Notes: generated by a model from the sequence alone, not told the origin. Positions 5,756 through 43,801 are shown, counted from the first letter of the stretch. The stretch is 64,000 nt of DNA from Roseibacillus sp. (GCA_051251855.1 JBPOGI010000001.1:1696001-1760000), one strand, 5' to 3'. A program made the numbers and translations.

Positions 5756-5792
5756 ACTCTCAACTTACCCAAACCAGAACAAATACTCAACC

Positions 5793-5807: not shown

Positions 5808-5864
5808 ACTTAGCCAACCACGCTGGCATTGGCGTATTTTACCGTATCGAGGTATCTCTCGGAT

Positions 5865-24300: not shown

Positions 24301-25239
24301 ATGCTTGCTTTCTCCACTTGTTGGAACAACTCCCGCCATAGCGATGGCGAGGAAATGGTGGATGAGATCCTCGAACTCGGATTCGACCACTTGGAACTCT
24401 CCCACGGGATGACCATCGCCAAGCTCCCTGGTCTGCAGAGAGCCTACAAGGCGGGCAAGTTCACCTGCGTGGGTGTCCATAACTACTTTCCTTCTCCCAC
24501 CGAGGTTATGATCGATGCGCCCGATGCCTATGAGTTCACCTCCTTTCGCGAGAACGAGCGCCAGCGTGCGATGGACATGACCCTCAAGACCCTCGATGTC
24601 GCCGCTGAGTTCGAAGCCAAATACCTCGTCCTTCATATGGGCTCCATCCCCCAAATGCCTCATAAAAAGTGGACCGGCAAACTGACAGCCATGGTCAAAG
24701 ATGGCGAACAGGACAATCCCGACTACGTCAAACATAAGTTGAAGTGTGTCAAAAAGCGGGAAAAACACGGCCCCCTCTACTTTGACCGTGCTTGCAAGAC
24801 CCTCGAAGTCCTGGCCGAACGAGCTGCTGAACTCAATATCAAACTTGCAGTCGAATCACGTTCCAAGTTCGAGGATATGCCCACCGAACGAGAGATGCTC
24901 GTGCTACAAGAACGATTCAAGGACCACCCGAATGTTGTCTATTGGCATGATTTTGGCCACGTGCAGCTCAAGCACAACCTCGGTCTGTTAGAGCATGCTG
25001 ATTGGCTACGCAAAGTTCAGCCCTATCTTTATGGAGCTCACGTGCACGACGTGGAGTGGCCAGCCCGCGACCATCGAGTCCCCTTCACCGGCGAATTAGA
25101 CTACAAGAACCTCTTCCAATACTTCCCCAAAGATGCGCCCCTCACTTGGGAGCTTTCCCCCACCAGAAAGGCCGCGCAAATCAGCACGGCCTTAGAAGTT
25201 TGGAAAAGTCTTTATCCTGAGACCATCGTCACTCGTTAG
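24301..25239 (+). CDS. Sugar phosphate isomerase/epimerase (AP endonuclease 2 TIM barrel)
   Basis: LVLHMG, LAVE, WHDFGH, HVHD, DHRVP..G, WE motifs. Confidence 0.75.
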   Translation: MLAFSTCWNNSRHSDGEEMVDEILELGFDHLELSHGMTIAKLPGLQRAYKAGKFTCVGVHNYFPSPTEVMIDAPDAYEFTSFRENERQRAMDMTLKTLDVAAEFEAKYLVLHMGSIPQMPHKKWTGKLTAMVKDGEQDNPDYVKHKLKCVKKREKHGPLYFDRACKTLEVLAERAAELNIKLAVESRSKFEDMPTEREMLVLQERFKDHPNVVYWHDFGHVQLKHNLGLLEHADWLRKVQPYLYGAHVHDVEWPARDHRVPFTGELDYKNLFQYFPKDAPLTWELSPTRKAAQISTALEVWKSLYPETIVTR

Positions 25240-27497
25240 GGAACCAGTTCAACACGGAAGAACTCGTAACCAAGAGCACCCAAATCGAGTTCGCTCTCAG
25301 AAATGGTAAAGCGATTTGCCCCATCATCGGAAGTGGTCACCGCAGTAAAGCCTCCTGCCAAGTCAGTAGCTCCTGTGACAATCTTTCCAGCAACGCCTCC
25401 TTCAACCTCGATGAAAAAGTCGCCATTACTCTCAAAGCCACAGCTCGTGATCACCAGCTCAACAGGCTCAACCTCGTTAGCCGGAAGACCAAAGAGGGTG
25501 AACCTCAGATTACTATTCGTGGTGAACGCTCCCGAGCCATCGCTCCGGACCCGCAGCCCTGTTCCAAAACCATTCTGAGCCTTGAGTCGCAGTGCAGCCG
25601 TGCTTTGCATACGAACCGCTAAACTTGTGCCCGCGCTCGTGAAGGTGATGGGTTCCTCAAAGGCAAAGTAAGAAACTCCCGTGGACCCTGAAGGGCTCAA
25701 CGTTCCGCGTGCAACGCCGACTAGTGTCTCGCAGTCAACGCCATCGAAGTCATCATCAGCGTCGGCGGCCGCAGGGTCATAAAATTCGAAAGAGATATCA
25801 CCTTGCCCGTTTCCACCTCCAGTGACGACCCAAGCGATTCCTGTAATCTCAACTTCAGTTCCTGCCTGAGGAAACAAGCCCGGAAAGAGGGTCGTAAAAT
25901 TCGGTCGCCCAAAGCCAAAGGTCAGATCGGCACCACCTTGAGCCGCTTCGTTGAGAATCGCCGTTGCCAGCGCGTCAGGGTCGCTTGCAACCGGACGGAT
26001 GGGCAAGGCATCCGCTGGCCCAACCACTCCGAAATTCATAATGGGAGTCAGACCGAGAGGTGCCGGGTTGATACCGTCTCCTGGGAACTCACTCACATCG
26101 TCCGGATTCGTGCCATAGAAGAGAACCTCTTCGGCATCAGTAAAGGTATCGCTGTCGAAGTCATCGTTGAGGAACGGATCAAGGCCATTGGCCAACTCGT
26201 AGGAGTCCGACAATCCGTCATTATCGGTATCGCGGTTTACGGGATTCAAGAATCCTGACAATCCGGTGGAATCAAATTCAAAACGGTCACTCAGTTTATC
26301 GTTATCAGTATCACTATCGTTGGGGTCTGTGCTTTGAAACCCGCCATTAAACTCGTCGATATTGAGGAGCATGTCCAAGTCGGGATCGTCTTGAGACTCA
26401 TCGCTGTTGATAGGGTCAAAACCGTTATCAACCTCCCACCCGTCGAAGAGGCCGTCCCCATCGGTATCAGATTCGGTTGCATCGGTTTCTGTCGCTTCGA
26501 CCACGCCGTTCCTATTGACATCTTCTTCAGCATCGGTGAGCCCGTCTCCGTCAGAGTCCGCACTGTTAGGATCCGTCAGCATTGTCAAAACTTCGACTCC
26601 ATCCAGAATCCCATCATTGTCAGAATCGTCATTATCAGGGTCCGTCTCTTCGTTGAAGAAGGCCGAGTTGAGAGAGCCAAATACCTCATCCTTATCTCCA
26701 AGATTGTCTCCATCTGTGTCGGTTAAAAGAGGGTTCGAAGTAAAGCCTGTGAAAAGGTCACCAAACACCTCATCACCATCTTCCAAGTCATCGCCATCTG
26801 TATCGGGATTATTCGGATCTGTTCCCGTATTTGACGCATTCACATAAATCCCGGTATTTGTCTCGAATTCGTCGAGAATACCATCGTCGTCGGTATCCAC
26901 ATTCCCGGCAATAAAAGGAGTAGAAGTTCCCGCGATGGTAAACTTGGGACCATTAAAAGTTTCCATCGAGAGTGCTGCAGCTTTGAATCGGACCGAACCT
27001 GCCCCAGCACTGTTAGAGGGAACAACTTCGATTCGGAAGCGGCCTTGGGAATTCGGCATCGGATCTGGTATCACTGCCGAGAAAGGGGCATCGAAGACAA
27101 CATAGTATTCTCCCGCACCGTCATGAGTATAGTTCACGGTTTCCTCCCCAATAAAGAGGTCATCAAATGTATTGAGAGTATTGTCTGCTCCGAGATATCT
27201 CAGTCTCACTGTGAGTTCGGTCGCATCATTAGCTCCCGCAGTTCCCGAGGTCGCAAATGCGAAGCCAGTGATTTCGACAGTCGAACCATCAGCACCCACA
27301 TTTAATGCTGCAAGATTCCGATTTGCGGCAAATTGAGCCGGCTGATTCGTGGTGACATCGCTCCCTCCCGTAGCCGCATCATCGACAAAAAAGTCTGTTC
27401 CGAGACTAGCAGTTGCATCCCCTTTCACAAAACTGGAAGCGCAAGCGAAGCCACTCAGCAGGCTGGTGGTAATAAATATTGAATTAGCTATTTTCAT
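25236..27497 (-). CDS. Secreted protein: two copies of an unnamed domain flanking ~10 TSP3-like Ca-binding repeats, plus C-terminal tail domain
   Basis: Signal peptide; D(T/S)DxDGxxDxxE..GTDP repeats; ends EFFRVELVP. Confidence 0.8.
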   Translation of the reverse strand: MKIANSIFITTSLLSGFACASSFVKGDATASLGTDFFVDDAATGGSDVTTNQPAQFAANRNLAALNVGADGSTVEITGFAFATSGTAGANDATELTVRLRYLGADNTLNTFDDLFIGEETVNYTHDGAGEYYVVFDAPFSAVIPDPMPNSQGRFRIEVVPSNSAGAGSVRFKAAALSMETFNGPKFTIAGTSTPFIAGNVDTDDDGILDEFETNTGIYVNASNTGTDPNNPDTDGDDLEDGDEVFGDLFTGFTSNPLLTDTDGDNLGDKDEVFGSLNSAFFNEETDPDNDDSDNDGILDGVEVLTMLTDPNSADSDGDGLTDAEEDVNRNGVVEATETDATESDTDGDGLFDGWEVDNGFDPINSDESQDDPDLDMLLNIDEFNGGFQSTDPNDSDTDNDKLSDRFEFDSTGLSGFLNPVNRDTDNDGLSDSYELANGLDPFLNDDFDSDTFTDAEEVLFYGTNPDDVSEFPGDGINPAPLGLTPIMNFGVVGPADALPIRPVASDPDALATAILNEAAQGGADLTFGFGRPNFTTLFPGLFPQAGTEVEITGIAWVVTGGGNGQGDISFEFYDPAAADADDDFDGVDCETLVGVARGTLSPSGSTGVSYFAFEEPITFTSAGTSLAVRMQSTAALRLKAQNGFGTGLRVRSDGSGAFTTNSNLRFTLFGLPANEVEPVELVITSCGFESNGDFFIEVEGGVAGKIVTGATDLAGGFTAVTTSDDGANRFTISESELDLGALGYEFFRVELVP
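26095..26897 (-). repeat. Bacterial TSP3-like Asp-rich repeats (~10 units, coding)
   Basis: DTDDDGILDEFE, DTDGDDLEDGDE, DTDGDNLGDKDE, DSDNDGILDGVE, DSDGDGLTDAEE, DTDGDGLFDGWE, DPDLDMLLNIDE, DTDNDKLSDRFE, DTDNDGLSDSYE, DFDSDTFTDAEE. Confidence 0.8.
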
Positions 27498-27508
27498 GGT
27501 TTTTGGTC

Positions 27509-30500
27509 CTATCGTTGGTTGAAGCGCATCCGGAAGAATTCACGTTCCTCGTTAAGATCCGGCTCGATGGAAAGGCGGTAGCGGCCACCACCCAGAGACT
27601 CGACGAGCACCGAGTCATCTTGGTTAAAATCCTCTAAATTCGTTGCACGCTCGGGAGTTGGCGAGAAAGGCCCCTCTGCAGACATGTCCAGAGAAAGCCC
27701 TAGCAGCCCAGTGCTCTGACTGAAAAAATCAAGCATGGAGCCAGAAAACCCAACCTCCCCTGGACGAAGACTCGTAAGCTCTCCTTCCATCGCCGATGCT
27801 CCAACCGCAAAGTGGCTCAGCCCACTCGCGTAGGACCCAGTAAGAGAGAGCGAAAGAGTTTGTTCTCCTAGCGTAAAACTCAAAACACTGGTGGAAGCGT
27901 CGAACGAAAAACTTCCCAGACTGAAATCTTCAGGGAGGGCTATAAGAGGCAACGACTGCGAACCTCCCGTTTTTCCCTCCATGAGAGAAACCTCGTTATT
28001 TCCGAAATCAACCACCGCTTGAATCAAGTTCGAGCGGGACGAGGAATCCCCGATTGCATAGACAAGTTTTGCATGACCAGCATTGTTCTCTTCAGTTGCA
28101 CGCAGGAAGAAATTAAAGTCCCAGTCTACAGTCATTGACTGCGTCTCACGGAAGGGCCCAGACAAGAAAACAGGCGAAGATGAATTCGTCCTCAGTCGAT
28201 AACCACCTGGAATCGCCGTCCGTTCCAATCCCGCATCTAACTCTACGCCGCCGCTTCCGTAGAGGGGCACTGTTGTCCGCGCATCCCATGCCAAAAAACG
28301 CTCCTTCAATTCCTCAAAAACATCGGGATTGGCTCCCGCAACATTCGTCGTTTCTCCGATATCACTTTCTAAATCATAGAGAACAGGATTGAAGCCAGGG
28401 TCGCTGTTGAAGAGCTTCCACTTCCCTTTCCTAAGCGCTGAACCACCGCCCGTCGAGCCACTGGCACGAAACGGAATCACCCGTTCATCAGGCAGCGCCT
28501 CCCCCCCATTCAAGAGTGGCATCAAATCCAAACCATCCAAACCGTTGCGGGCGACCGCTGGAGCTCCCCCCGCATTCACGAACGTCGCCATAAAATCTAG
28601 CGAGCTTACGGGAGTATCAATCACTTGATTTCCTGGCATTCCACCAGTCCACTGAATCGCACAAGGAACCCGAATCGAGCCTTCCTGCATGCTGCCACTC
28701 TTCTTTCCCTTCAAAGGAAGGTTATAAGAGTAATTCCCACCAAATCCGGTCACCCATTCCGCGCCACCGTTATCCGTCATGTAGACAAAGATGGTGTTAT
28801 TGGTCAGGCCTTCGGCTTCCACCTTATCGACCACTTTACCAATGTTCTCATCCAAAGCCAAAGTCATCGCAGCTAGCTCGTATCGATTAGCATCGACTGT
28901 CGCTTGATTGGAATTGGCAAAGACTCGTGGCGAATTCAAATAGTCTGCGGCCGTCAAACCAAATTCATTCTGTAATCGAGCGAAGCGCGCATCTGCGGAC
29001 TGAATATCCATCGGGCCGTGGACCGCAGTGAATGACATGTAGATGTAAAAGGGCTGCCCCGCATGGTTCTGCAAATGCTCGTCGATAAAATCAACACTAC
29101 TATCCCCAATTCGATCGGTGAGATAACTTCCATCCTCATCGCTAAAAACGGGCGTCATTTGGTCTTGAAAAATCCGACTCTCATCCGAGTTATTGTAGTA
29201 ACTTCGACTCCCTGACCACATTCCATACCAGCGATCGAATCCACGGACATTAGGATGATACTCCACAGTATCTCCCAAGTGCCACTTCCCTACCCCGTAG
29301 GTCCGATAGCCCAACCCTTGCAAACGACGCGGGATGGTTTGCACCCCCACAGTGAGCCCATTATGGCTGGCTCCACTCAGGTTGTTATCAGTTCCAATGC
29401 GCTGCTGGTGTATACCGCTCAAAATCCCGCAGCGCGAAGGATGGCAGACCCCCGCAATGGCATAAGCGTCAGTGAAACGAGCCCCTTTGGTAGCAATCTG
29501 TTGCAGCTCCGGCATCGGATATTTCGCCGCCCAAGTGGGATGTCCATTGAGCTGAATGTCCGAGTAGCCTTGGTCGTCCGAAAAGATAAAGATAATATTA
29601 GGAGGAGTGGAGACCGTCGACCAATTCTCCAAAGCGGTCAGGACAATCTCAAACTGACCACTGGTGGGAACATCGTAGTCCACTCGAAATCGATTCGGCC
29701 CCCAACTGAACTCTTGTCCATTGCGAGCATTTCCAAACTGGCCATCACGACTCCCATATCGAATCAAGGAAATGGTGCTACCAACAATGTGAGTATATCC
29801 CGCGTCGAACGTCAAATCGAGCGCGCAACGATTCAGGATCAAAGCCCCCTCGGCTACCACCGCTGGTGAGCCCCCCGGATTGTGGAAACGCATCATGGAT
29901 CCCCCTCGTTCGAAGGCTCCCATCGTCAGGTCTCCAGCGACCTCGAAGGCACCGCCCGCAATCGTCACCGAACCATCACAAGACTCCACACTTGTTCCAA
30001 AATTTGCATTCCCTTCCACGGAGAGCGTGCCCCCATTCACCTCTACAAAAGAGTCGTTCGCACTCACATTGCGGCCTACCACCAAGTCGCCGCCCACATT
30101 GAGGGTCCCCGACTCCACCACCAGCGTCCCTTGCCCGTCCGCAGTCCCGTCGATTCCCAAGTTCAAAACACCAACTCGCTCATCGGCTGGAATCCCCCGA
30201 TAAGCCACCCTGCGATACTCACCGACTAACACCTGGTCCTCATCACCCAGATCACCCGACGCCGTCCCCCCTGGCACTTCCCAGCTAATTTCATCCCAAA
30301 AGCCACTGGCGGTTGCGGTGTTGGAAACCGGGGGCGTTTCCCCACCAGAGGAAGAGCCAGCCAGGCTCAACTTTACAGCCCCTTGACCTGTGCTCCCTGA
30401 AGGCGAAGTTTTACGCCTGATATTCCCATTAGAAGTGATCGAAATCCGGAGTGAACCACCACCAGCTGTGAAGCTCAAATTGTTGTCAAAAATCCAAAGA

Positions 30501-30859
30501 TATTCTCCCGCTCCCGAGAAAACGAGGTCATCTGAATAAGAGCCGAGCACGACATCATCAGCGGTTCCTACGGCTTCATCCGCACCAAGGTCAGTAAAGG
30601 TCACTGTCGCTTCCGTTGCCGCTGTTCCAGACCCCGACGATGCCCATGCCAACCCCGTCAAGTTCACCATCGCACCTGTAGTCCAATATCCGGTGACCGT
30701 GCGATTGAAGTTGGAGGTTGTATTGTCACTTCCGCCTGTAGCGGCATCATCAAAGAAGAAGTCAGGGCCTAACAAGGCAGTGGCATCACCAGACACAATG
30801 TCGGCAGCCCCCGCCATCGTTAAAGAACCCGCGAGGGCGACGAGACAAAGTTTTTTCAC
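27509..30859 (-). CDS. Modular secreted formylglycine-dependent (S1) sulfatase
   Basis: PNIIFIFSDDQG, CHPSR, GKWHLG, AVHGP, TDNGG, KG...EG.IRVP; N-terminal unnamed domain and beta-helix-like repeats. Confidence 0.9.
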   Translation of the reverse strand: MKKLCLVALAGSLTMAGAADIVSGDATALLGPDFFFDDAATGGSDNTTSNFNRTVTGYWTTGAMVNLTGLAWASSGSGTAATEATVTFTDLGADEAVGTADDVVLGSYSDDLVFSGAGEYLWIFDNNLSFTAGGGSLRISITSNGNIRRKTSPSGSTGQGAVKLSLAGSSSGGETPPVSNTATASGFWDEISWEVPGGTASGDLGDEDQVLVGEYRRVAYRGIPADERVGVLNLGIDGTADGQGTLVVESGTLNVGGDLVVGRNVSANDSFVEVNGGTLSVEGNANFGTSVESCDGSVTIAGGAFEVAGDLTMGAFERGGSMMRFHNPGGSPAVVAEGALILNRCALDLTFDAGYTHIVGSTISLIRYGSRDGQFGNARNGQEFSWGPNRFRVDYDVPTSGQFEIVLTALENWSTVSTPPNIIFIFSDDQGYSDIQLNGHPTWAAKYPMPELQQIATKGARFTDAYAIAGVCHPSRCGILSGIHQQRIGTDNNLSGASHNGLTVGVQTIPRRLQGLGYRTYGVGKWHLGDTVEYHPNVRGFDRWYGMWSGSRSYYNNSDESRIFQDQMTPVFSDEDGSYLTDRIGDSSVDFIDEHLQNHAGQPFYIYMSFTAVHGPMDIQSADARFARLQNEFGLTAADYLNSPRVFANSNQATVDANRYELAAMTLALDENIGKVVDKVEAEGLTNNTIFVYMTDNGGAEWVTGFGGNYSYNLPLKGKKSGSMQEGSIRVPCAIQWTGGMPGNQVIDTPVSSLDFMATFVNAGGAPAVARNGLDGLDLMPLLNGGEALPDERVIPFRASGSTGGGSALRKGKWKLFNSDPGFNPVLYDLESDIGETTNVAGANPDVFEELKERFLAWDARTTVPLYGSGGVELDAGLERTAIPGGYRLRTNSSSPVFLSGPFRETQSMTVDWDFNFFLRATEENNAGHAKLVYAIGDSSSRSNLIQAVVDFGNNEVSLMEGKTGGSQSLPLIALPEDFSLGSFSFDASTSVLSFTLGEQTLSLSLTGSYASGLSHFAVGASAMEGELTSLRPGEVGFSGSMLDFFSQSTGLLGLSLDMSAEGPFSPTPERATNLEDFNQDDSVLVESLGGGRYRLSIEPDLNEEREFFRMRFNQR

Positions 30860-30869
30860 GAGGACAAGA

Positions 30870-31577
30870 TTAACGGCGGCGGCGTAGAAGTGACAAAAGA
30901 CCCATTCCGCCCAACAAAGCCACCGTCGGCTCGGGAACAGGAGTCACTAGGCCTGCAACACTCAAACTCATCTGATAACCAGTTCTCGTGTTGCCATTGC
31001 CAGTATTCTCGGCCTCGGCACCAGTACCAGTAGGACCAGTCTTTAAGCGAAGAGCTGCCGTATTCGCGATACTGAAACCAAAGCCATTGGAATCTGCGAC
31101 CCAAGAAATCGGAGTATCAAAGTTGACGTAGTATTCGTCGACGCCTGCGGCCTCGCTTGCAAAAGTCGTTGCGACCGAACCGAAGATGGTAGAATCGCCG
31201 GTATCGTAGTCGTCATTAATACCTAAGCTCCGAAACGAAATGGTCATGGTTCCGTTCTGGGTATTATTGGTTGCGTTATTATTGTTGGACCAAAAAGGCA
31301 ACGCGACCCCCGTAATCTCTACGGTATCACCAATTGTCCAATTCCCCCCGCTTTGAACTTCCCAAATGTGGGCAGAAGCATTTCCTCCGTCAAACCGCAG
31401 ATCGTTACCGCCGGAAGTGGCCAGGTCCATGAACAGAGTCTCACCCGATGGTGCGAGGTCAGCACTACCAATCGTATAACCTTTGACCCAAGTCGCTGAT
31501 TGGACACTCCCTGCCGCGAGGCCAAAAAGAAGGAGAGAGAGATTTTGAGGTTTTTTGTAAATGAATGCCATCATCAC
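30870..31577 (-). CDS. PEP-CTERM sorting domain protein
   Basis: Ends VPEPTVALLGGMGLLSLLRRRR; signal peptide. Confidence 0.93.
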   Translation of the reverse strand: MMMAFIYKKPQNLSLLLFGLAAGSVQSATWVKGYTIGSADLAPSGETLFMDLATSGGNDLRFDGGNASAHIWEVQSGGNWTIGDTVEITGVALPFWSNNNNATNNTQNGTMTISFRSLGINDDYDTGDSTIFGSVATTFASEAAGVDEYYVNFDTPISWVADSNGFGFSIANTAALRLKTGPTGTGAEAENTGNGNTRTGYQMSLSVAGLVTPVPEPTVALLGGMGLLSLLRRRR

Positions 31578-31634: not shown

Positions 31635-33161
31635 TCAATTTTCCAGGTCCAATCCTGAGTCGGCTAACCGCCCTTCATAGAGAGCGCAAACCCCAATACT
31701 ATCGACGATTCCTTCCGCAATAATCACCTCATCAATGAGGCCGGCAAAGCTCGCCAACTCCCAAGGAGATTCTTCAATCGCTCGCATAAAGCGTCCAATC
31801 ATCAAAGGCTCGGAACCCGGATCTGTCGTGACCGTATTGAAGGTGTCGAGACTCGCCATCTTTCCATCCATGGGAACCCGTGGCGTCATTTCCTCCGGCA
31901 CACCATCAATATAGAGCTGCGTCACAGGCCAAGCCCCCTTCTTGTAATCCCCCGTAACAATGACGACATGATGCCAGGAACCTCCATCTAATACACTGAC
32001 CCCTTCCAACCAACGACGTCCCGAAACCATTCGTAATCGTCCCTCTTTACCTAGTCGGAGCCCAAAAAAGGACATTCGGTCGTTACCGGCGGCTAGCCCC
32101 CAACCCAATATCGGATTCGCTCGCCCACCTTTCGAAGTCTTAAACCAAAAAGAAACAGTACGCGCTTGTGAGCCTGAAATCCCAGGCCAGTTCGCACGGG
32201 CATGGGTTTTCTTACCATCGAACAAAAGCCCCTTACCAAAGCGACCCTCGACCAACTGAGGACTATATGGATCGTCCATCACCAACTGAACACTATCTCG
32301 ACTCGCAATCGAGCCAGAACAACGACCAGCTTCCTCGTTTTCTGTATCAAAGGACAACAATAGCGCCGGAATTCCGCTTCCTAAAGAAGAAGGAAACCGT
32401 TCCTGATCGATAGGGATGGGAGTCATAAGCCCTTCCTCGGCTAAGACCATTGCTTGTCCTCCCTCCACTCTCGTTTCTTCACGGTTGCCGCTTCGCCCTT
32501 GCCCAATCACCAGACCACTGAGAACGTGAACTTCCGGCGTCAGATTAGTAGCATCAACTCCGAAAGAGGTGCCTAGGTCAGTTAACTCGAGATCTCCGGA
32601 TATTACTTGAAAACCTCGCGCCTGCTTTTCGACGTCGAAGCGAGCTCTCCCCCCCTTTAGGTGGACGAGTCCCTTTTTCTCGAGAGAAAGCTCAGCAGGA
32701 GCCTCTATCAGACAACGCACTCCTTCGAAAAATTGAATCTCAACCGTGCCCTGCACGACTCGAAGGGTAGCCCCCTTCTCAAGTTGGCCCGCCTTACGAC
32801 TGCCCTCCGCGGGTCCGCTCACCGCGATGAGGCCATGTGGAGAAACCGTCATCTCAGCTAAGATTGGTTGGCGTGATGGGCTCAAATGAAAGAACAAAGC
32901 CAACCCGAAACTCAGCATCAACAAGGCGGCTGCAGCCAACATCCAACTTCGTTTCGACCGATGAGCCACTGGACCCATGCTCGCTAGCGGCACCGAAACC
33001 GAAACTTCACGCAGTGTTTGCTCAAAATCAGCCTCGTCACAGAAGCGCTTCAAGAGCTTATCATCGGAATGCAACAACTCCTTAAGCTCTTCGATTTCTC
33101 CTTCTTTCAGCGTTCCACTAAAATAGGCTGAAGCGAGTTCTTCTAAGCGTGCCATCATCAT
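31635..33161 (-). CDS. FecR-like anti-sigma factor with LamG domain
   Basis: N-terminal helical domain, TM (WMLAAAALLML), FecR (IEAPA, GFQV...DLGTSFGV), LamG (WHHV, GLIDEV); overlaps sigma stop. Confidence 0.85.
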   Translation of the reverse strand: MMMARLEELASAYFSGTLKEGEIEELKELLHSDDKLLKRFCDEADFEQTLREVSVSVPLASMGPVAHRSKRSWMLAAAALLMLSFGLALFFHLSPSRQPILAEMTVSPHGLIAVSGPAEGSRKAGQLEKGATLRVVQGTVEIQFFEGVRCLIEAPAELSLEKKGLVHLKGGRARFDVEKQARGFQVISGDLELTDLGTSFGVDATNLTPEVHVLSGLVIGQGRSGNREETRVEGGQAMVLAEEGLMTPIPIDQERFPSSLGSGIPALLLSFDTENEEAGRCSGSIASRDSVQLVMDDPYSPQLVEGRFGKGLLFDGKKTHARANWPGISGSQARTVSFWFKTSKGGRANPILGWGLAAGNDRMSFFGLRLGKEGRLRMVSGRRWLEGVSVLDGGSWHHVVIVTGDYKKGAWPVTQLYIDGVPEEMTPRVPMDGKMASLDTFNTVTTDPGSEPLMIGRFMRAIEESPWELASFAGLIDEVIIAEGIVDSIGVCALYEGRLADSGLDLEN

Positions 33162-33724
33162 TGATCCCTCCTCTGTTTGCGTTCAATGCACTGCCGCAAG
33201 GTAGCTCTTAGTCTATGGAAAGACACTCGCAAACCGCCCTCACTTCGCTCCCACTTAAGAGAGCACTCGATGAGTGACATTCCCAGCCCGTATCGGTCGT
33301 AAATGAGGGAGCGATTCTTCGCTGACAGCTCTTGTAAACAGTCGACCAAATCCTCCTCATGGTCCTGCCAATGACTCTCCGTGCGTTGAGAGAGCTCTTC
33401 CTCCACCAGAACAGCCAGCTCCGAATCAAACAGAAGCCAAGAACTCCGCTTCTTCTCTTTTAGATAGGCCAAAGATTCCCAGCGAGCGATTGAGAAGGCC
33501 CAAGCCTTAAAATTCGTTCCCAACTCAAACTTCTCTCGCTTGCGCCAAATCACCAGATTGACCCGCTGCAGGATATCCTCCACTTCTCCGCCAGTTGGGA
33601 CCAAACTCCTCAAAAAAGCCTGCAAACTCGATTGATGGCTCGCAATGAGAGCCATCACCTCCTCATCCCCTTCGCAGGAGGGATCCACACTTGTCGGATC
33701 CAGAACTTTTAAAGAACCGCTCAT
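33158..33724 (-). CDS. ECF sigma-70 factor (Rhodopirellula/Verrucomicrobium type)
   Basis: EDILQRVNLVIWRKREKFELGTNFKAWA; region 4 L...RY...LR..LRQCIE. Confidence 0.92.
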   Translation of the reverse strand: MSGSLKVLDPTSVDPSCEGDEEVMALIASHQSSLQAFLRSLVPTGGEVEDILQRVNLVIWRKREKFELGTNFKAWAFSIARWESLAYLKEKKRSSWLLFDSELAVLVEEELSQRTESHWQDHEEDLVDCLQELSAKNRSLIYDRYGLGMSLIECSLKWERSEGGLRVSFHRLRATLRQCIERKQRRDQ

Positions 33725-35611: not shown

Positions 35612-38491
35612 GTGAGTCTCGGTCAATACTTGGAGAGTAGATTTAGGAGAATTTATACCCCTGCTCCAGCTCTACCTCAAAAAAACCACCCCATTTTGAA
35701 CCAACTCTTACTTCTGTTTGCGAGCTTCTTGATGATGAGCATAGCTCTCTCTCAAGATAAGTCCGACGACCTCTTGCTCGTCTCTGTAGGGGAAAGCTCG
35801 AACCGTTATTCTGAAGTGGCGCTTCATCTGCAGGGACTCTTCGCTGGCACGCCTGGAATGAGCGAAGTTCAAATCGATATCCATGAGGACTCAAATATCG
35901 AATCTCTCGCCGATGGTTACTACGACAAGAACCCGGAGGACATCGCGCTGCGTGCCAAAGCCGCCGAAGGTTACGGCAACGTCATTCTCATTCCTACGAT
36001 CCACACCACTCCGACCGGCACCATCGAATACTCTGAGTTTGGTGGCGGGCCCGCCAACGTCTACGACGATGCTCCGCTCGACAACGAATACTTCGCCCCA
36101 GAGGTATTCTACGAAGGTTGCACCCAGCTTTCGAAAATCATTCTTAGCGGCGGCAGCAAGCCCATGGTTTTCCTCCCGCTGAATTCTGATGAAAATCTGT
36201 CAGACTACGGCCCCGTAATGTATCGCGTGGCTAATGGAGTCGGGATGGAACTCGTTCCTGGAGCCTATGCAGTCGATGCGGCAACCAGCCCCACTCAGGC
36301 CGAGCAGCACTACCTTTATGCCTGCACCCTCTTTTCTCATCTCACTGGTCTCAACGCTACGACCTCAAGTTACAGTCCTTCGGGCATCTCCAGTGAAGAC
36401 GCCACAACCTTCGCGAACACGGCCGAAACGGCTGTCACCCTCAATCGCACGACCTCTCACTATAGCACCAGTTACGAAAACGATGGCGCCGTTGTCTACC
36501 GAAGCCTCGATGTCACGAGCGCTCCCTTCAACAATACCGTTCGATACATGTATAAAGGCTCGAGCACACAAGACTGGACTTCGGACGCTCTCGACAAAAT
36601 TATCGGGAGCAACCCTCCCACAACTGTCGCAAGTCGCAAGCTAGGCACTCGAAACGGCGTTTACTCTCCAGGAGTGCGATATTGGCATCCCGACGACATT
36701 GCCGACCAAGGCTTCAAGTTTGCCTTGGAACCAAACCAAGCCGCCTTGATGTATGTCTCTGGGTCTTGGGCTGGAGCCGGAGCGCAAGAGACGATCGACA
36801 TGACTCAGGCAAACATGATCCCCTTTGCTTTCGACTGGATTAAGTCCTTCGCAATTTCCCCCGCGGTCAGTGGCACCGCCTCGACAGTCGACGCCCTCGA
36901 TTATCACAGTTGCGTGGAGCTCTACTTCAACTACGCCGAGCGAGGCTGGAAACTCATTCCCTTAACGATTGGGATGGGCCGTATCAATGAAGCAGTCCCC
37001 AACTTCGTTGCTTCCGACGATGCCCTACACTCGTCAGACCCACTCGTCTACATGAACGCTTACATGATGCTCAGCTCCGCACTGGGCACACAGTTCCCTC
37101 TCCCAGCCACCATTGACCCCGCCGACATCCATCGCGGCTCCTACACCACTGAGCAAATTCACGAGGCCTGCCTCATCGGCCACGAGCTCATCAAGGAACT
37201 CGCTCACCTTTCTGAGACAGGCGACTTCGTGCCCGACACCGATCTCGAAATTCTTACCGACGAACTGCCAGAGGTGCCACTCGACGTGCCCTTCACCCAT
37301 CAATTGTCCGCCAGCGGTGGAGACTCTCACTACACTTGGGCACTCGCGGCTGAGACCTCTCTCCCACTAGGGCTCACCTTATCTAACACCGGCCTCATCT
37401 CTGGCACTGTAACAGGAGGATACGGCACCAGTGGCGTAGCCTTCCAAATAGCCGATGGCACAGGAGCCTTTCGAAAAGTGGGCTTAAAGCTAGCCACCCC
37501 TTTCCCTGCTAGAGGCATCACCTCCAACGTCAACATCTTTGCCGCTGCGGACACCAACTACGGGACAGACACCGTGGCGACGATGTATTCTGCGATGCAA
37601 ACCGCCCCCGATGGCTTGGCGACCTTTCGCATCGCCATTAACATAGACCCGATGGCGGGAACCTCTATCACAAGCCAAGCTCAAGGTCTTTGGGGCATCA
37701 ATTCTGGCGAAGGTCCTAGTGGATGGTGGACCACCTTCGATGGCAGCCTTTCTCAATCAGTTGACTCCATCTCGAACATCCACATTACCGACTTCAATGC
37801 CAATGGAGGAAATCTCACCCTAAGCGATTTCACCGACCTCTCCTTCACTTCAATCACGGTGCGCAATGGAGCGAACACAGCCGACCGAGTGAAAGTCGTC
37901 GCGGAAGGATTGGCGAACAACCCGAACGGACTCAGAATGGCAAGCGACCCCGCAACAATCGATTTACTTACCGTTGCGGGGACTCGCCCCATTTCCAGCT
38001 TCACCATTGCTAACGGCAACATTGGCAACAGCAAGGACCGCTGGAACATCGAAAGTATCGCCGTCGAATTCACGGTTCAGTCAACCACTGTTGAAGACTA
38101 CGCATCTTGGGTGGCCAGCTATGGCCTTGCCGGCAACGACGCTTTACTGGATGCCGACACTGACGATGACAACTATGACAATCTCATCGAATACGCCCTC
38201 GGCATGAATCCGACGCAAGCGGATGCGAGTTCAAAAGAGACCTATTTCACTGAGGAAGATAATGGAGCCGTCTCCTTCGTTTATGAGTATGAGCGCCGCA
38301 CCGACTACTTTGAGCGAGGACTCAGCTACACCTTGATCGAAACTCAAGACTTAATCACTTCCGCGACCGGCGCCCCCACTCAGGTCACTGTTGGCGACCC
38401 AATCGACGGCTTCGAGACCGTCACCACTCACTACCTCATTGGCGACCCCATCAAATTCATTCAGCTAGAAGTCACACTGACTTCTCAGTAG
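35612..38491 (+). CDS. Secreted modular protein: SGNH-like N-region, putative Ig domain, C-terminal tail domain
   Basis: DDALH catalytic-like motif; LPLGLTLSNTGLISGT (He_PIG-like); DADTDDDNYDNLIEYALG; true start may be TTG ~35696. Confidence 0.7.
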   Translation: MSLGQYLESRFRRIYTPAPALPQKNHPILNQLLLLFASFLMMSIALSQDKSDDLLLVSVGESSNRYSEVALHLQGLFAGTPGMSEVQIDIHEDSNIESLADGYYDKNPEDIALRAKAAEGYGNVILIPTIHTTPTGTIEYSEFGGGPANVYDDAPLDNEYFAPEVFYEGCTQLSKIILSGGSKPMVFLPLNSDENLSDYGPVMYRVANGVGMELVPGAYAVDAATSPTQAEQHYLYACTLFSHLTGLNATTSSYSPSGISSEDATTFANTAETAVTLNRTTSHYSTSYENDGAVVYRSLDVTSAPFNNTVRYMYKGSSTQDWTSDALDKIIGSNPPTTVASRKLGTRNGVYSPGVRYWHPDDIADQGFKFALEPNQAALMYVSGSWAGAGAQETIDMTQANMIPFAFDWIKSFAISPAVSGTASTVDALDYHSCVELYFNYAERGWKLIPLTIGMGRINEAVPNFVASDDALHSSDPLVYMNAYMMLSSALGTQFPLPATIDPADIHRGSYTTEQIHEACLIGHELIKELAHLSETGDFVPDTDLEILTDELPEVPLDVPFTHQLSASGGDSHYTWALAAETSLPLGLTLSNTGLISGTVTGGYGTSGVAFQIADGTGAFRKVGLKLATPFPARGITSNVNIFAAADTNYGTDTVATMYSAMQTAPDGLATFRIAINIDPMAGTSITSQAQGLWGINSGEGPSGWWTTFDGSLSQSVDSISNIHITDFNANGGNLTLSDFTDLSFTSITVRNGANTADRVKVVAEGLANNPNGLRMASDPATIDLLTVAGTRPISSFTIANGNIGNSKDRWNIESIAVEFTVQSTTVEDYASWVASYGLAGNDALLDADTDDDNYDNLIEYALGMNPTQADASSKETYFTEEDNGAVSFVYEYERRTDYFERGLSYTLIETQDLITSATGAPTQVTVGDPIDGFETVTTHYLIGDPIKFIQLEVTLTSQ

Positions 38492-38512
38492 AAAGGTTCC
38501 ATCAATTTTCAA

Positions 38513-39274
38513 ATGAAACATCAAATCACAATTGCGCTTTCTCTCCTCTTCGTTCAAATTAGCTCAATTCAAGCGGCTCCCGAACAAGGCTCAAGAGCTG
38601 AAAAAAGGAAACAAGACTGGAGCTTCACCCCGAATCCCGACCTTCCTAACGTTCTGATTCTCGGCGACTCAATCTCAATCGGCTACACCCTCCAAGTGCG
38701 GGAGCTTTTAAAGGACAAAGCGAACGTCTACCGCCCCACTGCAGCCAATGGTAAAAAGGCCATGAACTGCAGCGACACCATTTCTGGCCTCCGACGTCTT
38801 GACTCTTGGCTAGCCGGTCATGAGTGGTCAGTGATTCACTTCAACTGGGGTCTCCACGACCTCAAGCATGTCAAAGAGGCCGGTAAGCAGATCAACTCTT
38901 CAAATCCCAAAGACCCTCAACTCACCACGCCCGCCCAGTATGCTCAGAACATCAAAAGCATCGTCACCAAACTAGAGGCGACGGGAGCAAGATTGGTTTT
39001 TGCGACAACGACTCCGGTAACCCCTGGCACCACAAACCCACTAAGAACGCCCGAATCTCCTCAAGTTTACAACGAGGCAGCACTCAAGATTATGAAGGCC
39101 CACAACATTCGGGTTAACGATCTCCATTCTTACAGTGTGCCTCATTTGAAAGAATGGCAGTTACCAAAGAACGTGCACTTTCGTTCTGCTGGCTCTGCAG
39201 CCCTAGCGAAGCGAGTTGCCTCGGTCATCAGCGAAGAGCTCGCTGTAGCAAAAACTGTTGATACGTCACCTTAG
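38513..39274 (+). CDS. SGNH/GDSL hydrolase (putative carbohydrate acetylesterase)
   Basis: GDSIS, FNWGLHD, NVHF; signal peptide. Confidence 0.88.
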   Translation: MKHQITIALSLLFVQISSIQAAPEQGSRAEKRKQDWSFTPNPDLPNVLILGDSISIGYTLQVRELLKDKANVYRPTAANGKKAMNCSDTISGLRRLDSWLAGHEWSVIHFNWGLHDLKHVKEAGKQINSSNPKDPQLTTPAQYAQNIKSIVTKLEATGARLVFATTTPVTPGTTNPLRTPESPQVYNEAALKIMKAHNIRVNDLHSYSVPHLKEWQLPKNVHFRSAGSAALAKRVASVISEELAVAKTVDTSP

Positions 39275-39282
39275 ATTTCACT

Positions 39283-41850: not shown

Positions 41851-41878
41851 TAAGAGAACACAAAACCAACTTTAAAAG

Positions 41879-43801
41879 ATGAACCTAAAACTCGTCCTAC
41901 AATCGGTCCTCCTTTTCACTTACTCACTCCTCACCGCAGCCCAACCCAGTATCGACCTAGCCGGCGACACGGACAAGGATGGTTGGCGCGACACAATTGA
42001 GGTCACCTTGGGCACCGACCCCTGCGACTCCACCAGTAACCTCTGTGCAAAGATCGAGAGTCTGGGAAACGACTCCTACTCTCTCACTTGGCCGACCGGC
42101 TTGGATTGCGGCTACCAAATCGAGTTCAGCAACGACCTCGAATCAGGCTTTTCTCAAGTCGTCGCGGGCCCCTTTATAGGCGACGGCAGTTTACGCACCG
42201 AAACTATCGACCTCAGCACTATTACTCCCCAACCATCCGCTATCGAACCCGGCTTCTTTCGCATCAGCGCTACTCTTCCTCGGCCTAACATCGTCTTCAT
42301 CATGTCCGACGACCACGTTGCAATGGCAATGGGTCACATGAATCACCCAGACCATTCAGAAGTCTTGACTCCTAACATGGACCTCTTGGCCTCTCGCGGC
42401 GTTTGTTTCAACCGTGCCTACTCGAACACTTCCATTTGCCGCCCTTCTCGTGCGACTACGTTCACGGGAACTTTCGAATACAAGCACGTCACCAACTTTG
42501 GGAACGTCAGCTCGAACTCCCTCGATGCCGACCTTTGGAACCAGTCCTACCCCATCCTAATGGCCAACAATGACTATCGCATTGGTTTCGCGGGTAAATT
42601 TGGCTTCGGGATGGAGCTTTCCGAAGCTACCTACTCCGCACAGTTCGATAAATGGGGCGGCTTTGATGGCGATGGCCAAGGCTCATACGATACCGCAGCC
42701 AATGCCGCCCTCACTAATTACTCCACAGCCTATCCTCACGTCAGCAGAGCCTTAGGTGCGTTTGGGAAGGACTTCATTCAGGAGTCCGTCTCCGCCGGAG
42801 AAAATTTTTGCCTCACCCTCTTCCCTAAATCACCTCACCTTCCGAACGACAACATTGACCCATTGGACCAGAACAAGTTCGACGCCGTGGTCCCCTTCGC
42901 GTTGCCCACCACTTGGGCCCAAAACTTCAACGACCTCATGCCGCCCCAACCAAGGTTTGCCCGCCCTCACCAAAGACGCTGGCTTGACGAACCAACCTAC
43001 CAATCTTTTGCCCTCGGCTACTACCAACTCATCGCGGGCATGGACGCTGGAATCGGCATCGTCTTGGACGAACTCGAGGCCAGTAACGTTGCCCACAACA
43101 CCGTCGTCATCTATACCTCGGACAATGGCTACTTTTTAGGCTCGAACGGCGGATGGCATGGTAAAGTGCTTCCTCATGAAGAAGGTTCTCGCATCCCCTT
43201 CATCGTCTACGATCCCTACGCCCCCCTTGACACCATCGGCACAACCTCGGACGCGATCATTGGCAACGTCGATTGTGCCGCCACTCTCCTCGACTACGCT
43301 GACCTCCCCGTTCCCGCGCATATGGACGGAATCTCCATTCGACCGATCGTCGAAAATTCCGCACCACGCATTCGTGACTCCATGCTTCTCATTCAGAACT
43401 GGACCGCTGGCAACGACGACCTCAGCCGAGCTCTCTCAGTGGTCACCGAAGAGTTTAAATACACCTACTGGCCTTATTGCGACATCTACGTCAATCCCAC
43501 CGAAGAGATCTACCACATCCCCTCCGACTCTTTCGAAAACAACAATCTGATCGACACGATGGGAAATCTAAGCGCCCCTCTCGACACCACTACCTTAGCC
43601 CAACTCCGGAGCGACTATGACGGATTCGCAACCGACTGGGCGAACAACGTCCCGGTTGGAGCAACCGGTTACCAAAGAGTCGGCGTTCTCTTCGATCGAA
43701 GTATCGACCACACTCTCAAATCGTTCACCCCCATTTCCCCCACGAACACCAACTACCGTAACAACTACCAAGATGTTACCGGTCAAACCTTTCCAAATTA
43801 A
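41879..43801 (+). CDS. Secreted S1 sulfatase
   Basis: PNIVFIMSDD, CRPSRAT, GKFG, SPH, TSDNG, GK...EE..RIP. Confidence 0.9.
   Translation: MNLKLVLQSVLLFTYSLLTAAQPSIDLAGDTDKDGWRDTIEVTLGTDPCDSTSNLCAKIESLGNDSYSLTWPTGLDCGYQIEFSNDLESGFSQVVAGPFIGDGSLRTETIDLSTITPQPSAIEPGFFRISATLPRPNIVFIMSDDHVAMAMGHMNHPDHSEVLTPNMDLLASRGVCFNRAYSNTSICRPSRATTFTGTFEYKHVTNFGNVSSNSLDADLWNQSYPILMANNDYRIGFAGKFGFGMELSEATYSAQFDKWGGFDGDGQGSYDTAANAALTNYSTAYPHVSRALGAFGKDFIQESVSAGENFCLTLFPKSPHLPNDNIDPLDQNKFDAVVPFALPTTWAQNFNDLMPPQPRFARPHQRRWLDEPTYQSFALGYYQLIAGMDAGIGIVLDELEASNVAHNTVVIYTSDNGYFLGSNGGWHGKVLPHEEGSRIPFIVYDPYAPLDTIGTTSDAIIGNVDCAATLLDYADLPVPAHMDGISIRPIVENSAPRIRDSMLLIQNWTAGNDDLSRALSVVTEEFKYTYWPYCDIYVNPTEEIYHIPSDSFENNNLIDTMGNLSAPLDTTTLAQLRSDYDGFATDWANNVPVGATGYQRVGVLFDRSIDHTLKSFTPISPTNTNYRNNYQDVTGQTFPN

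Follow-up and report, generated by a model that had tools for sequence, protein, structure and literature searches.

A so far unnamed domain shared by a sulfatase and two neighbouring proteins of Roseibacillus: a candidate glycan-binding module

Three adjacent genes of Roseibacillus sp. encode four copies of one real domain of about 170 residues. The genes lie in a stretch of 64,000 nucleotides of marine-type Verrucomicrobiota DNA, which we refer to as the window. The domain is that of a genuine but rare family, and it appears so far to be unnamed as judged against Pfam, NCBIfam and the PDB; a CBM number in CAZy may exist. Several suggestions can be made regarding its function. The one that we prefer, and to which we would give an even chance of being right, is that the domain would be a new calcium-stabilised glycan-binding module, a CBM-like family common to an enzyme and to surface glycan-binding proteins.

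Four copies of one domain in three adjacent genes

The domain-bearing genes are all on the minus strand, to which every coordinate given below refers. Together with the genes for a sigma and an anti-sigma factor they make a tightly packed unit of five genes, which is probably one operon. The first gene of the cluster (33158..33724) encodes an ECF sigma factor of 188 aa; it matches Sigma70_r2 and is placed among the ECF factors by TIGR02989, the model of the Rhodopirellula/Verrucomicrobium family of sigma-70 factors (133.4 bits against a cut-off of 124.55). It overlaps by 4 nt with the gene for an anti-sigma factor of 508 aa (31635..33161), which has a FecR domain (Pfam FecR, aa 139-218) and a C-terminal LamG-type (concanavalin-like) domain (Laminin_G_3, aa 316-480). 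There follow the genes for a PEP-CTERM protein of 235 aa (30870..31577), made up of a signal peptide, one copy of the domain and a PEP-CTERM tail, for a secreted sulfatase of 1116 aa (27509..30859; Pfam Sulfatase) and for a protein of 753 aa with thrombospondin type-3 repeats (25236..27497; TSP3_bac), which we call two-headed. The sulfatase gene starts 10 nt after the end of the PEP-CTERM gene, and the gene for the two-headed protein starts 11 nt after the end of the sulfatase gene. A promoter and terminator scan returned 8 promoter-like sites (5.5 +/- 3.0 expected) and 5 terminator-like sites (10.4 +/- 2.7 expected).

The copies were mapped with a hidden Markov model (HMM) built from 83 family members, each less than 45% identical to any copy in the window. 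This model matches the three proteins in exactly four places, at 107-173 bits. Copy 1 (subtype P) occupies aa 24-214 of the PEP-CTERM protein (30936..31508; 173 bits for the match over aa 24-224) and copy 2 (subtype S) aa 16-182 of the sulfatase (30314..30814; 138 bits). Copies 3 and 4 are the N-terminal head (subtype N, aa 20-196, 26910..27440; 134 bits) and the C-terminal head (subtype C, aa 512-679, 25461..25964; 107 bits) of the two-headed protein. Among 600 shuffled versions of the three proteins none scored above 5 bits with the same model. BLASTP aligns the sulfatase copy with the N-terminal head at 87.8 bits (41% identity over 162 residues) and the PEP-CTERM copy with these two at 46.6 and 40.8 bits, respectively; the C-terminal head matches the sulfatase copy at 40.4 bits and the PEP-CTERM copy at 35.0 bits, and the two heads of the two-headed protein are the weakest pair (22.3 bits).

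An earlier note, made from the sequence alone, had claimed a domain present four times across three adjacent genes. The HMM and BLASTP confirm it, and the ranges it gave for the copies agree with the mapped positions to within a few tens of bases. The motifs that it listed are all present, and all of them are conserved columns of the family: in the numbering of the PEP-CTERM protein D51, A53, G56, G57, D59, V86, T89, G90, L118 and G119, followed by D121, Y149, F153, D154, R177, K179, S206, A208 and G209. The mature N-terminus, right behind the signal-peptide cleavage site, is conserved as well (A-A-x-I/L-x-x-G-D/Y).

Recent local duplication was considered as the origin of the four copies and rejected, since they fall in separate, well-supported subclades, each with orthologues of the same architecture. 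Copies inside one cluster are 25-54% identical to each other, and the positional orthologue in another genome is closer. The nearest copies to copy 1 are PEP-CTERM copies of other genomes (48-55% identity). Copy 2 shares 60-70% identity with the sulfatase-proximal copies in three genomes (G579, G500 and G585); for copy 3 the identity is 54% with the G479 N head and 45% with an extra tandem copy on the G585 sulfatase. Copy 4 belongs to a clade of 12 C-terminal heads of two-headed proteins (SH-aLRT 99).

The rest of the three proteins and the locus in other genomes

The sorting tail of the PEP-CTERM protein (aa 213-235, 30873..30941) was read from the sequence as VPEP, a hydrophobic stretch and RRRR (VPEP...LLSLLRRRR). 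The Pfam model PEP-CTERM (PF07589) gives it 16.3 bits, under the cut-off of 20.7, and it is the tail motif together with exosortase in the genome that puts the protein in the PEP-CTERM class (PF07589 / TIGR02595): the genome has two exosortase matches (PF09721) above cut-off and 75 ORFs with PEP-CTERM-like tails.

In the sulfatase the catalytic domain lies at aa 420-765 (28565..29602; PF00884, E 5.3e-47), and a search for the motif C/S-x-P-x-R found the formylglycine motif CHPSR at aa 472-476 (29432-29446). With CHPSR and 161 bits for PF00884 against a cut-off of 25, the protein is a type I sulfatase. The genome has 103 sulfatase matches, and the domain is present on only one of its roughly 100 sulfatase genes. 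The sulfatase ends in a further domain of about 100 aa (27512..27808, ending in EFFRMRFNQR). This can be aligned with the C-terminal ends of the two-headed protein and of 24 long family members, and it is recognised by an HMM made from them. The C-terminal domain of the two-headed protein (25239..25460, ending in YEFFRVELVP) is of the same family. Pfam and NCBIfam have no match to the C-terminal domain of either protein. For that of the two-headed protein the ESM Atlas offers as nearest clusters unnamed ones associated with Verrucomicrobiota (score 0.85, a lead only). The two heads are joined by a linker of thrombospondin type-3 repeats (aa 197-511, 25965..26909), which TSP3_bac matches in four stretches and in which eight D.D.D...D motifs stand between aa 201 and 434; these repeated motifs and a PF18884 score of 39.2 bits (cut-off 25) make the protein a member of the TSP3 class.

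At least six other genomes of this bacterial family have the operon as well, with parts that vary by locus, and its arrangement is conserved across several genera. In five loci (L098, L099, L101, L102 and L015) the FecR-LamG anti-sigma gene is directly upstream of the domain-bearing genes and the domain sulfatase follows. Among the six loci L098-L102 and L015, a PEP-CTERM copy is present in five and a two-headed protein in four. Two genomes (G568 and G571) have no two-headed protein; there the sulfatase carries a tandem extra copy, whose identity with the N head on the G500 two-headed protein is 53-55%. This would agree with the enzyme requiring additional binding modules close by. Carriers of the domain are 3 of 40 close relatives, 19 of 300 genomes of the family and 0 of 400 further genomes of the phylum.

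A rare family with a predicted beta-sandwich fold

Among 1.84 billion representatives the family comprises 141 clusters at E<=1e-3. Its hosts are secreted or surface proteins of Verrucomicrobiota, and one member or more comes from Planctomycetota. Of the 138 members that matched cleanly, 130 have the projected start of their first domain within residue 60, i.e., directly behind the signal peptide. The commonest form is the lone domain with a PEP-CTERM tail: 41 short members consist of a signal peptide, the domain and a PEP-CTERM-like tail. Pfam partners in 55 long representatives are the PATR beta-helix (12), TSP3 (9), Big_9 (9), Glyco_hydro_cc (7), Sulfatase (6) and LamG (3), while 10 have no Pfam family; the Glyco_hydro_cc members also carry F5/8-type-C (CBM32) and ricin-B lectins. 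The Roseibacillus genome itself has six copies: besides the four in the window, a Glyco_hydro_cc enzyme and a PATR protein have one each. In the tree of the family the labels sulfatase, TSP-N, PEP and PATR are scattered, the sulfatase label requiring 7 changes for 7 rows. Hence the module has been repeatedly shuffled between architectures. In some parts of the tree N heads and PEP-type copies are sisters, as with P0003 and the PEP-CTERM copy of the window (SH-aLRT 99) and with P0012 and the PEP-CTERM copies of L015 (SH-aLRT 100).

The earlier note had called the domain apparently unnamed, and this holds for the Pfam, NCBIfam and PDB sequence searches alike. Neither Pfam nor NCBIfam has a model covering the domain, whether in the window proteins, the 55 long relatives or 49 aligned members. 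The only matches from these collections among the 49 are PEP-CTERM tail models, with PF07589 in 33 of them and all NCBIfam matches being sub-threshold hits to PEP-CTERM family models; the latter are driven by the tail, since the tail-less sulfatase and TSP3 proteins do not have them. A sequence search of the PDB gave nothing significant (best E 0.062 with a four-copy profile and 0.31 with a 49-row profile). The closest named protein to the PEP-CTERM protein, at 76% identity in NCBI, is titled 'hypothetical protein'. A metagenome scan with the TSP3 protein as query found no relative; one with an alignment query (A4) gave 77 loci, all of them generic TSP3-repeat proteins and none with the domain. 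In papers on PEP-CTERM and sulfatase in Verrucomicrobia, titles and the opening parts of abstracts hold nothing on the domain, and a search for PEP-CTERM with carbohydrate-binding and polysaccharide in Verrucomicrobiota returned no paper.

An AF2 model of the PEP-CTERM protein (pLDDT 90.2, pTM 0.82) is all-beta, and its predicted fold is an 11-strand beta-sandwich of the lectin-like or galactose-binding-domain-like kind. The structures nearest to the model are the Cwp84 'lectin-like' domain, phage receptor-binding modules, PHR domains and CBM32/CBM22. In Foldseek the resemblance to PDB entries is weak (best E 2.6e-5, TM 0.41), with Eph-receptor ligand-binding domains next at TM of about 0.3. 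Among the nearest named ESM Atlas clusters is PF18560 Lectin_like (score 0.84, again a lead only).

The Cwp84 domain of Clostridioides difficile (PDB 4ci7, PF18560) has the same beta-sandwich fold as the model. Its structural neighbours, in the excerpted text of PMC4089489, are PHR domains, IFT25 and CBM32-like modules, as for the domain of the window. It holds a structural calcium ion, and its authors left its function open in the same excerpt (PMC4089489); in the window domain a calcium site is suggested by conserved Asp columns. The two domains are 8% identical, and the PF18560 HMM matches neither the three window proteins (E<=0.1) nor the 49 aligned members (E<=1). The Cwp84 domain comes after a protease, against which it packs, whereas the window domain is N-terminal and also occurs alone. 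Phage beta-sandwich modules, from a different biological setting, are 11-14% (phi812) and 9% (Bxb1 tail tip) identical to it; the phi812 authors compare the 'leg' domain of a tripod protein with Cwp84 and propose that it has a site for receptor binding (PMC13433997).

Like the window domain, CBM32/F5/8 type C, CBM22, CBM27 and the fucolectins are appended to carbohydrate-active enzymes and shuffled. CBMs, however, can sit anywhere in a protein, and the near-strict N-terminal position of this family is unusual. PF00754 (CBM32 / F5_F8_type_C) has no Pfam match on the domain in window proteins, long relatives or aligned members. Comparison of the domain family by hhalign with nine F5/8-type-C segments of the same proteins gave a probability of 9.9% over 29 columns; the same comparison gave 0.3% with ricin-B, 0.1% with LamG and 0.7% with the C-terminal domain.

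Suggestions regarding what the domain binds

The earlier note offered two options, a carbohydrate-binding module and a homotypic docking module. The first is consistent with the predicted fold, the N-terminal position, the carbohydrate-active partners and the shuffling, and binding stays putative. The partners are mostly carbohydrate-active (sulfatases, a glycoside-hydrolase core with CBM32 and ricin lectins, LamG), which would favour glycan binding. The fold cannot decide between sugar and protein, since its class has protein-binding members: it also serves protein-protein contacts, e.g., in IFT25/27 and PHR domains, according to the excerpt of PMC4089489. The conserved polar columns are D51, D59, D121, D128/129 and D154, together with R177 (74%) and K179 (96%) on one strand; as read from alignment columns and not from model coordinates, these Asp residues and the R177/K179 pair would suit a calcium site and an anion-binding face. 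Y149 and Y150 are conserved at 70% and 48%, and the family alignment columns include no strongly conserved surface aromatic residue of the sort typical of many CBMs. This lack of a typical CBM aromatic was counted against a glycan module, as were the occurrence on a single one of about 100 sulfatases and the 9.9% with CBM32.

If the domain binds a glycan, this might be one that belongs to the cell itself (exopolysaccharide, capsule or a glycan of the outer membrane) and not a food polymer, so that the domain would serve for retention in the envelope. Exosortase-exported PEP-CTERM proteins have been linked to exopolysaccharide and floc formation elsewhere (PMC12188702, PMC9850573, both as excerpted), and the many PEP-CTERM-like tails and two exosortase matches of the genome agree with such a role. 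A common 'address' would also fit better than a common substrate with carriers as different as the various enzymes and the non-enzymatic PATR, Big_9 and TSP3 proteins, and with the strict N-terminal position. Yet proteins already endowed with a PEP-CTERM tail or a C-terminal FFR-type domain need no second anchor, the family is rare among relatives with similar envelopes, and subtype diversification and the link to a LamG-sensor operon look substrate-driven. We regard retention in the envelope as unlikely.

The docking option supposes that the copies bind each other, homotypically or heterotypically, and that the PEP-CTERM anchor and the two-headed adaptor assemble the sulfatase in a cellulosome-like manner. 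What stood of it is the conserved co-occurrence in one operon: three module-bearing proteins are encoded side by side in several genera. Four distinct, positionally conserved subtypes are kept, as specific pairings would require. The N-head subtype is either part of the two-headed protein or joined to the sulfatase as a fusion, and fusion often marks physical partners; the sister positions of N heads and PEP-type copies and the protein-binding members of the fold class are also in its favour. However, 11 of the 20 carrier genomes of the bacterial family have a single copy, where copy counts are lower bounds, 11 candidates per genome having been scored. In the complete genome G599, where every candidate was scored, the one copy is on a full-length orthologue of the window sulfatase (54% identical across 1135 residues), and homologues of the PEP, TSP3, sigma and anti-sigma genes are all missing from its neighbourhood out to about 6 kb. 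The complete genome G500 has the domain sulfatase and the two-headed protein, and no PEP-CTERM copy anywhere at E<=1e-3; four further genomes have one copy only, on a PATR protein. Such single-copy genomes argue against obligatory pairing, and both the low identity of copies within a cluster (25-54%) and the prevalence of the lone domain with a PEP-CTERM tail point the same way. Homotypic docking is therefore disfavoured, and docking in general seems to us quite improbable.

A more elaborate version, in which subtypes P, S, N and C would be mutually specific docking modules and PEP anchor, TSP3 adaptor and sulfatase cargo would form a 'sulfatasome', we consider very improbable. In some genomes such a complex would hold a glycoside hydrolase too, and one fold, with no relation to cohesin or dockerin, would serve throughout. 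Cohesin-dockerin cellulosomes use two complementary module types; the likeness to them is confined to the idea of a repeated module in neighbouring genes assembling enzymes on an anchored protein. Cohesin and dockerin models have no match at E<=0.1 in the window proteins. One distant family member, P0079, has a Dockerin_1 match (24.2 bits) beside an N-terminal copy of the domain. Very unlikely, too, is a non-binding N-terminal cap acting as folding nucleus, spacer or PVC-specific export signal: the conserved mature N-terminus at which 130 of 138 members start, and the related Cwp84 fold, which packs against enzyme and propeptide and may aid folding (PMC4089489, excerpt), would agree with it, but second heads and tandem copies are internal, the conserved charged columns (D51, D59, D121, D154, R177, K179) point to a ligand or ion site, and the lone domains with PEP-CTERM tails would be left functionless.

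We return to the glycan-binding module. If correct, the LamG anti-sigma factor would sense a polysaccharide outside the cell and the sigma factor would turn on the three downstream genes. The N-terminal copy would hold the sulfatase on its sulfated polymer. The PEP-CTERM protein, exported via the exosortase route, would be a surface glycan-binding protein with one copy, and the two-headed protein another, with two different copies, a calcium-binding TSP3 stalk and a C-terminal domain; both would keep the same polymer at the cell. In the polysaccharide utilisation loci of Bacteroidota, SusE and SusF are surface glycan-binding proteins and enzymes bear CBMs. By analogy, the logic appears to be shared: a regulated locus with an enzyme and non-catalytic surface proteins made of tandem sugar-binding beta-sandwich modules, and likewise an extracytoplasmic sigma/anti-sigma pair as a possible sensor. 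Unlike Sus, the window locus has no SusC/D pair, its module is of a different family with putative glycan binding, and a predicted PEP-CTERM tail or the unnamed domain at the C-terminus would take the place of the lipid as anchor.

Sulfated algal and mucin-like glycans are the speciality of marine Akkermansiaceae and related Verrucomicrobiota, which have about a hundred sulfatase genes each. The excerpt of PMC13174399 likewise describes marine Akkermansiaceae as sulfated-glycan specialists and calls substrate capture 'largely understudied'. What we offer here is a defined unnamed module family and a conserved five-gene unit in which an enzyme and two non-catalytic, presumably surface-located proteins share the module. 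As a domain family it is solid and new, and its putative function is plausible; to a specialist it will be useful and not surprising. If it is true that the copies bind each other, this would be a new way to build enzyme complexes on a Gram-negative surface. Binding of a sulfated glycan, if true, would make the module a new CBM family, an aid to annotation of these genomes and a probe for marine polysaccharides.

A domain repeated in a five-gene cluster

Five genes, as read from the ORFs of the window, follow one another in the same orientation on the minus strand. The first two encode an ECF sigma factor (33158-33724) and, overlapping it by 4 nt, a FecR-LamG anti-sigma factor (31635-33161). 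They are followed after 57 nt by a gene for a 235-aa protein that begins with a signal peptide and ends in a PEP-CTERM tail (30870-31577), after 10 nt by that of a 1116-aa sulfatase (27509-30859) and after 11 nt by that of a 753-aa thrombospondin type-3 (TSP3) repeat protein (25236-27497). Pfam and NCBIfam match the sigma factor, FecR, LamG, the core of the sulfatase (aa 420-765) and the TSP3 repeats, and give a weak match to the PEP-CTERM tail. The formylglycine motif CHPSR of the sulfatase is intact (aa 472-476), and we counted eight D.D.D...D calcium motifs in the TSP3 linker.

The earlier note had proposed that the last three genes carry four copies of one unnamed domain. BLASTP among the four segments gives 22-88 bits, the best pair being the sulfatase copy and the N-terminal head of the TSP3 protein (41% identity over 162 residues). 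Circularity was avoided with an independent HMM, built from 83 family domain segments each less than 45% identical to every window copy, and scored on the three proteins and 600 shuffled versions of them. It finds exactly four matches of 107-173 bits, against at most 5 bits for all 600 shuffles, at aa 24-214 of the PEP-CTERM protein, aa 16-182 of the sulfatase, and aa 20-196 and 512-679 of the TSP3 protein, which thus has two heads. The four copies are therefore real; their proposed coordinates agree with these boundaries, and the ordered motifs noticed in them coincide with the columns conserved across the family (111 segments).

The domain is also unnamed as far as Pfam, NCBIfam, PDB sequences and the ESM Atlas are concerned. 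No Pfam family covers it in the window proteins, 55 long relatives or 49 aligned members, and neither Pfam nor NCBIfam matches the four stretches in the three window proteins. NCBIfam matches of family members are all to sub-threshold PEP-CTERM models and are caused by the tail. PDB sequence searches with two profiles gave no significant match to the domain, and the ESM Atlas at 0.91 gave unnamed clusters only. An NCBI protein of Roseibacillus persicicus, 76% identical, is labelled 'hypothetical protein', while a member from a Phycisphaeraceae MAG owes its name to the PEP-CTERM tail alone. Our literature searches turned up no description of the domain.

Several other features of these proteins deserve mention. 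A second unnamed domain of ~80-100 aa ends both the sulfatase (27512-27808, minus strand) and the two-headed protein (25239-25460, minus strand); its closing strand, a short distance before the stop, always resembles ...(E/R/A)FFR(V/L/M). It also occurs in the family representatives P0001, P0003, P0004, P0006-P0008, P0011, P0012, P0016, P0017 and P0023, among others. A selection pattern chose 24 long representatives, and an HMM from 26 C-termini weakly matches (E 1e-8 to 1e-3) the extreme ends of ~20 other large ORFs of the same genome. Neither Pfam nor NCBIfam matches this C-terminal domain, and at 0.85 the Atlas returns unnamed, Verrucomicrobiota-associated clusters. It may be a sorting or anchoring alternative to PEP-CTERM.

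Between the N-terminal domain and the core of the sulfatase (aa 183-415, window 29615-30313) lie ~230 aa of G/V/N-rich repeats, e.g. GTLVVESGTLNVGGDLVVG. They have no Pfam match and, by their sequence, look like beta-helix or PATR-type repeats; true PATR repeats follow the domain in many other family members. Residues 201-287 of the TSP3 protein, and also P0011, give a Pfam match to the calcium-binding domain of binary toxin B / anthrax PA that stays below threshold (21.3 bits, cut-off 25). The match coincides with the aspartate-rich TSP3 repeats, and its most likely cause is common calcium-binding loops rather than toxin kinship. Just upstream of the cluster, the plus strand (35612-43801) carries another group of genes probably concerned with polysaccharides, namely a 959-aa ORF without a Pfam match and genes for a GDSL-type esterase, a LamG protein of 855 aa and a sulfatase of 640 aa.

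Predicted fold and conserved positions

The AlphaFold2 model of the PEP-CTERM protein (49-row alignment) is all-beta, with eleven strands followed by a helical tail (pLDDT 90.2, pTM 0.82). Foldseek matches of the model are weak. A structure search independent of Foldseek, together with a second look, has as its top matches the phage phi812 tripod protein (11.2), the Cwp84 lectin-like domain (10.3; rmsd 3.0, 146 aligned), the Bxb1 tail tip (9.1), a PBCV-1 capsid protein (8.9), PHR domains (7.8-8.5), the N-terminal domains of PVA and acetyl-xylan esterases (7.1-7.7), and CBM32, CBM22, CBM27 and fucolectins (5.3-6.5). The Cwp84 domain resembles ours in fold, yet the two are only 8% identical. The passages of the Cwp84 report that deal with this domain give the same list of structural neighbours, describe a structural calcium ion, note that, depending on the protein, the fold binds sugars or protein partners (the latter in IFT25/27), and assign the domain no definite function (PMC4089489). 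The phi812 'leg' domain has been compared to Cwp84 by its authors, who suggest receptor binding (PMC13433997). The model thus clearly predicts a lectin-like beta-sandwich. Since this fold class includes both sugar and protein binders, fold alone decides for neither. Compared profile to profile, the domain and the CBM32-type domains that occur in its carrier proteins gave a negative result (9.9% probability).

Conservation was computed over the 111 domain segments (numbering of the PEP-CTERM protein). The most conserved columns form three groups: a glycine/core group (G56, G57, G90, G119, G133, F153, G209), an acidic group in loops and at strand ends (D51, D/N in 99%; D59, 94%; D121; D128/129; D154, 80%) and a basic pair, R177 (74%) and K179 (96%). 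The acidic group is probably a calcium site. The two basic residues stand two apart on one strand and hence on the same face, which could possibly bind anions.

Distribution, partners and kinship of the copies

A four-copy profile finds 141 representative proteins at E<=1e-3 (113 at <=1e-10) among 1.84 billion. The domain matches cleanly in 138 of the 141; its first copy has a projected start within residue 60, directly behind the signal peptide, in 130 of these, and 13 have two copies. Short proteins made of signal peptide, domain and PEP-CTERM-like tail account for 41 representatives, and 55 exceed 300 aa. A Pfam scan of these 55 gave as partners PATR beta-helix repeats (12 proteins), TSP3 (9), Big_9 (9), Glyco_hydro_cc with F5/8-type-C and ricin-B lectins (7), Sulfatase (6) and LamG (3); ten had no Pfam partner family. 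One representative, P0079 (1384 aa), combines a copy of the domain at its N-terminus, PATR repeats, a Dockerin_1 match (24.2 bits, cut-off 22.9) and a PEP-CTERM tail.

The distribution of the family is rare and patchy. Named carriers in Verrucomicrobiota are Akkermansiaceae MAGs, Lentimonas, Roseibacillus persicicus and uncultured Verrucomicrobiae; the one named carrier beyond is the Phycisphaeraceae MAG. The domain occurs in 3 of 40 close relatives, in 19 of another 300 genomes from the same taxonomic family (8 of 20 genera, counting the window's own genome, which is outside the 300) and in none of 400 further genomes sampled phylum-wide, where 8 candidates per genome were scored. Of the six copies in the window's own genome, the two outside the window are in an 863-aa PATR protein and, N-terminally, in a 1113-aa Glyco_hydro_cc enzyme; among the sulfatases and the PEP-CTERM proteins of this genome, just one each has the domain. 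In the assembly (13 contigs) there are 103 sulfatase-domain matches, two exosortase matches and 75 ORFs whose tails are PEP-CTERM-like.

A family-wide genome search with fetched neighbourhoods gave six comparable loci, described here in gene order. Sigma factor, FecR-LamG anti-sigma factor, PEP-CTERM copy, sulfatase and two-headed protein are all present in genomes G479 (locus L098), whose sulfatase has one copy, and G585 (L099), where it has two in tandem. G500 (L101) has anti-sigma factor, sulfatase and two-headed protein without a PEP-CTERM copy; G568 (L102) has anti-sigma factor, PEP-CTERM copy and a tandem-copy sulfatase without the two-headed protein. G571 (L015) has sigma and anti-sigma factors, a plain sulfatase, a tandem-copy sulfatase, two PEP-CTERM copies and another sulfatase. 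G579 (L100) has sulfatase, two-headed protein and a Glyco_hydro_cc enzyme with a copy, and is the exception among the six to a confirmed anti-sigma gene. In the PEP-CTERM position of this locus (3943-6012) lies a 690-aa ORF that ends in a copy (aa 483-678) and a PEP-CTERM tail; its first 480 residues have no Pfam match, and it is either a genuine longer protein or one whose start was called too far upstream. The domain-bearing sulfatase is thus the constant core, with the PEP-CTERM and two-headed proteins variable.

A tree of 125 domain segments places each of the four window copies in a well-supported subclade of its own, together with orthologues of the same architecture. Among 26 copies from seven clusters, most are closest to the same-position copy of another genome: identity is 48-75% for PEP-CTERM copies, mostly 60-72% for sulfatase-proximal copies (G479 is the exception, ~40% to its nearest) and 44-56% for C-terminal heads. 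Copies within a genome are 25-54% identical, except for one recent PEP-CTERM duplication (84%). Judged by this kinship, the four copies are old paralogues with fixed places in the cluster. The labels for sulfatase, N head, PEP-CTERM and PATR are dispersed across the family tree, which shows repeated module shuffling. The outer extra copy of the tandem sulfatases of G568 and G571 shares 53-55% identity with the N head of the G500 two-headed protein; both genomes, which lack a two-headed protein, are among those with an extra copy on the sulfatase.

Potential functions

What might the domain do? The earlier note had offered a new carbohydrate-binding module or a homotypic docking module. To the first of these, a sugar-binding module, we would give about an even chance. 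It fits the lectin-like fold, the placement at the distal N-terminus of proteins that end in a tail or domain, the carbohydrate-active partners, the module shuffling, and an operon with a putative LamG sensor. It also fits the apparent trade-off between a separate two-headed protein and an extra sulfatase copy fused in cis, and the biology of a genome so rich in sulfatases. The counterpoint is that protein binders occur in the same fold class.

That the copies bind each other to assemble an anchor-adaptor-enzyme complex is very unlikely: domain-bearing genes do cluster conservedly and copy subtypes are fixed in position, but 11 of 20 carrier genomes showed a single copy (a lower bound, from 11 candidates scored per genome), the complete genome G500 is without any PEP-CTERM copy, and G599 is such a single-copy genome with every candidate scored. 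In the latter, also complete, a full-length sulfatase orthologue (L103, G599:C1:3875500-3888500; 54% identity, N-terminal domain included) stands without sigma, anti-sigma, PEP-CTERM or two-headed genes within ~6 kb and without a second copy genome-wide. Hence an obligatory chain of this kind cannot be the general function, though copies may interact in an accessory way in multi-copy genomes.

The original interpretation thus gains partial support, sugar binding being the part that agrees with fold, partners and operon. The domain defines a rare lectin-like module family, new relative to the four resources searched and, as far as seen, restricted to PVC. A conserved sulfatase operon, putatively under sigma/anti-sigma control, is built around it, and we place it, by its putative function, among the beta-sandwich binding modules of carbohydrate-active systems.
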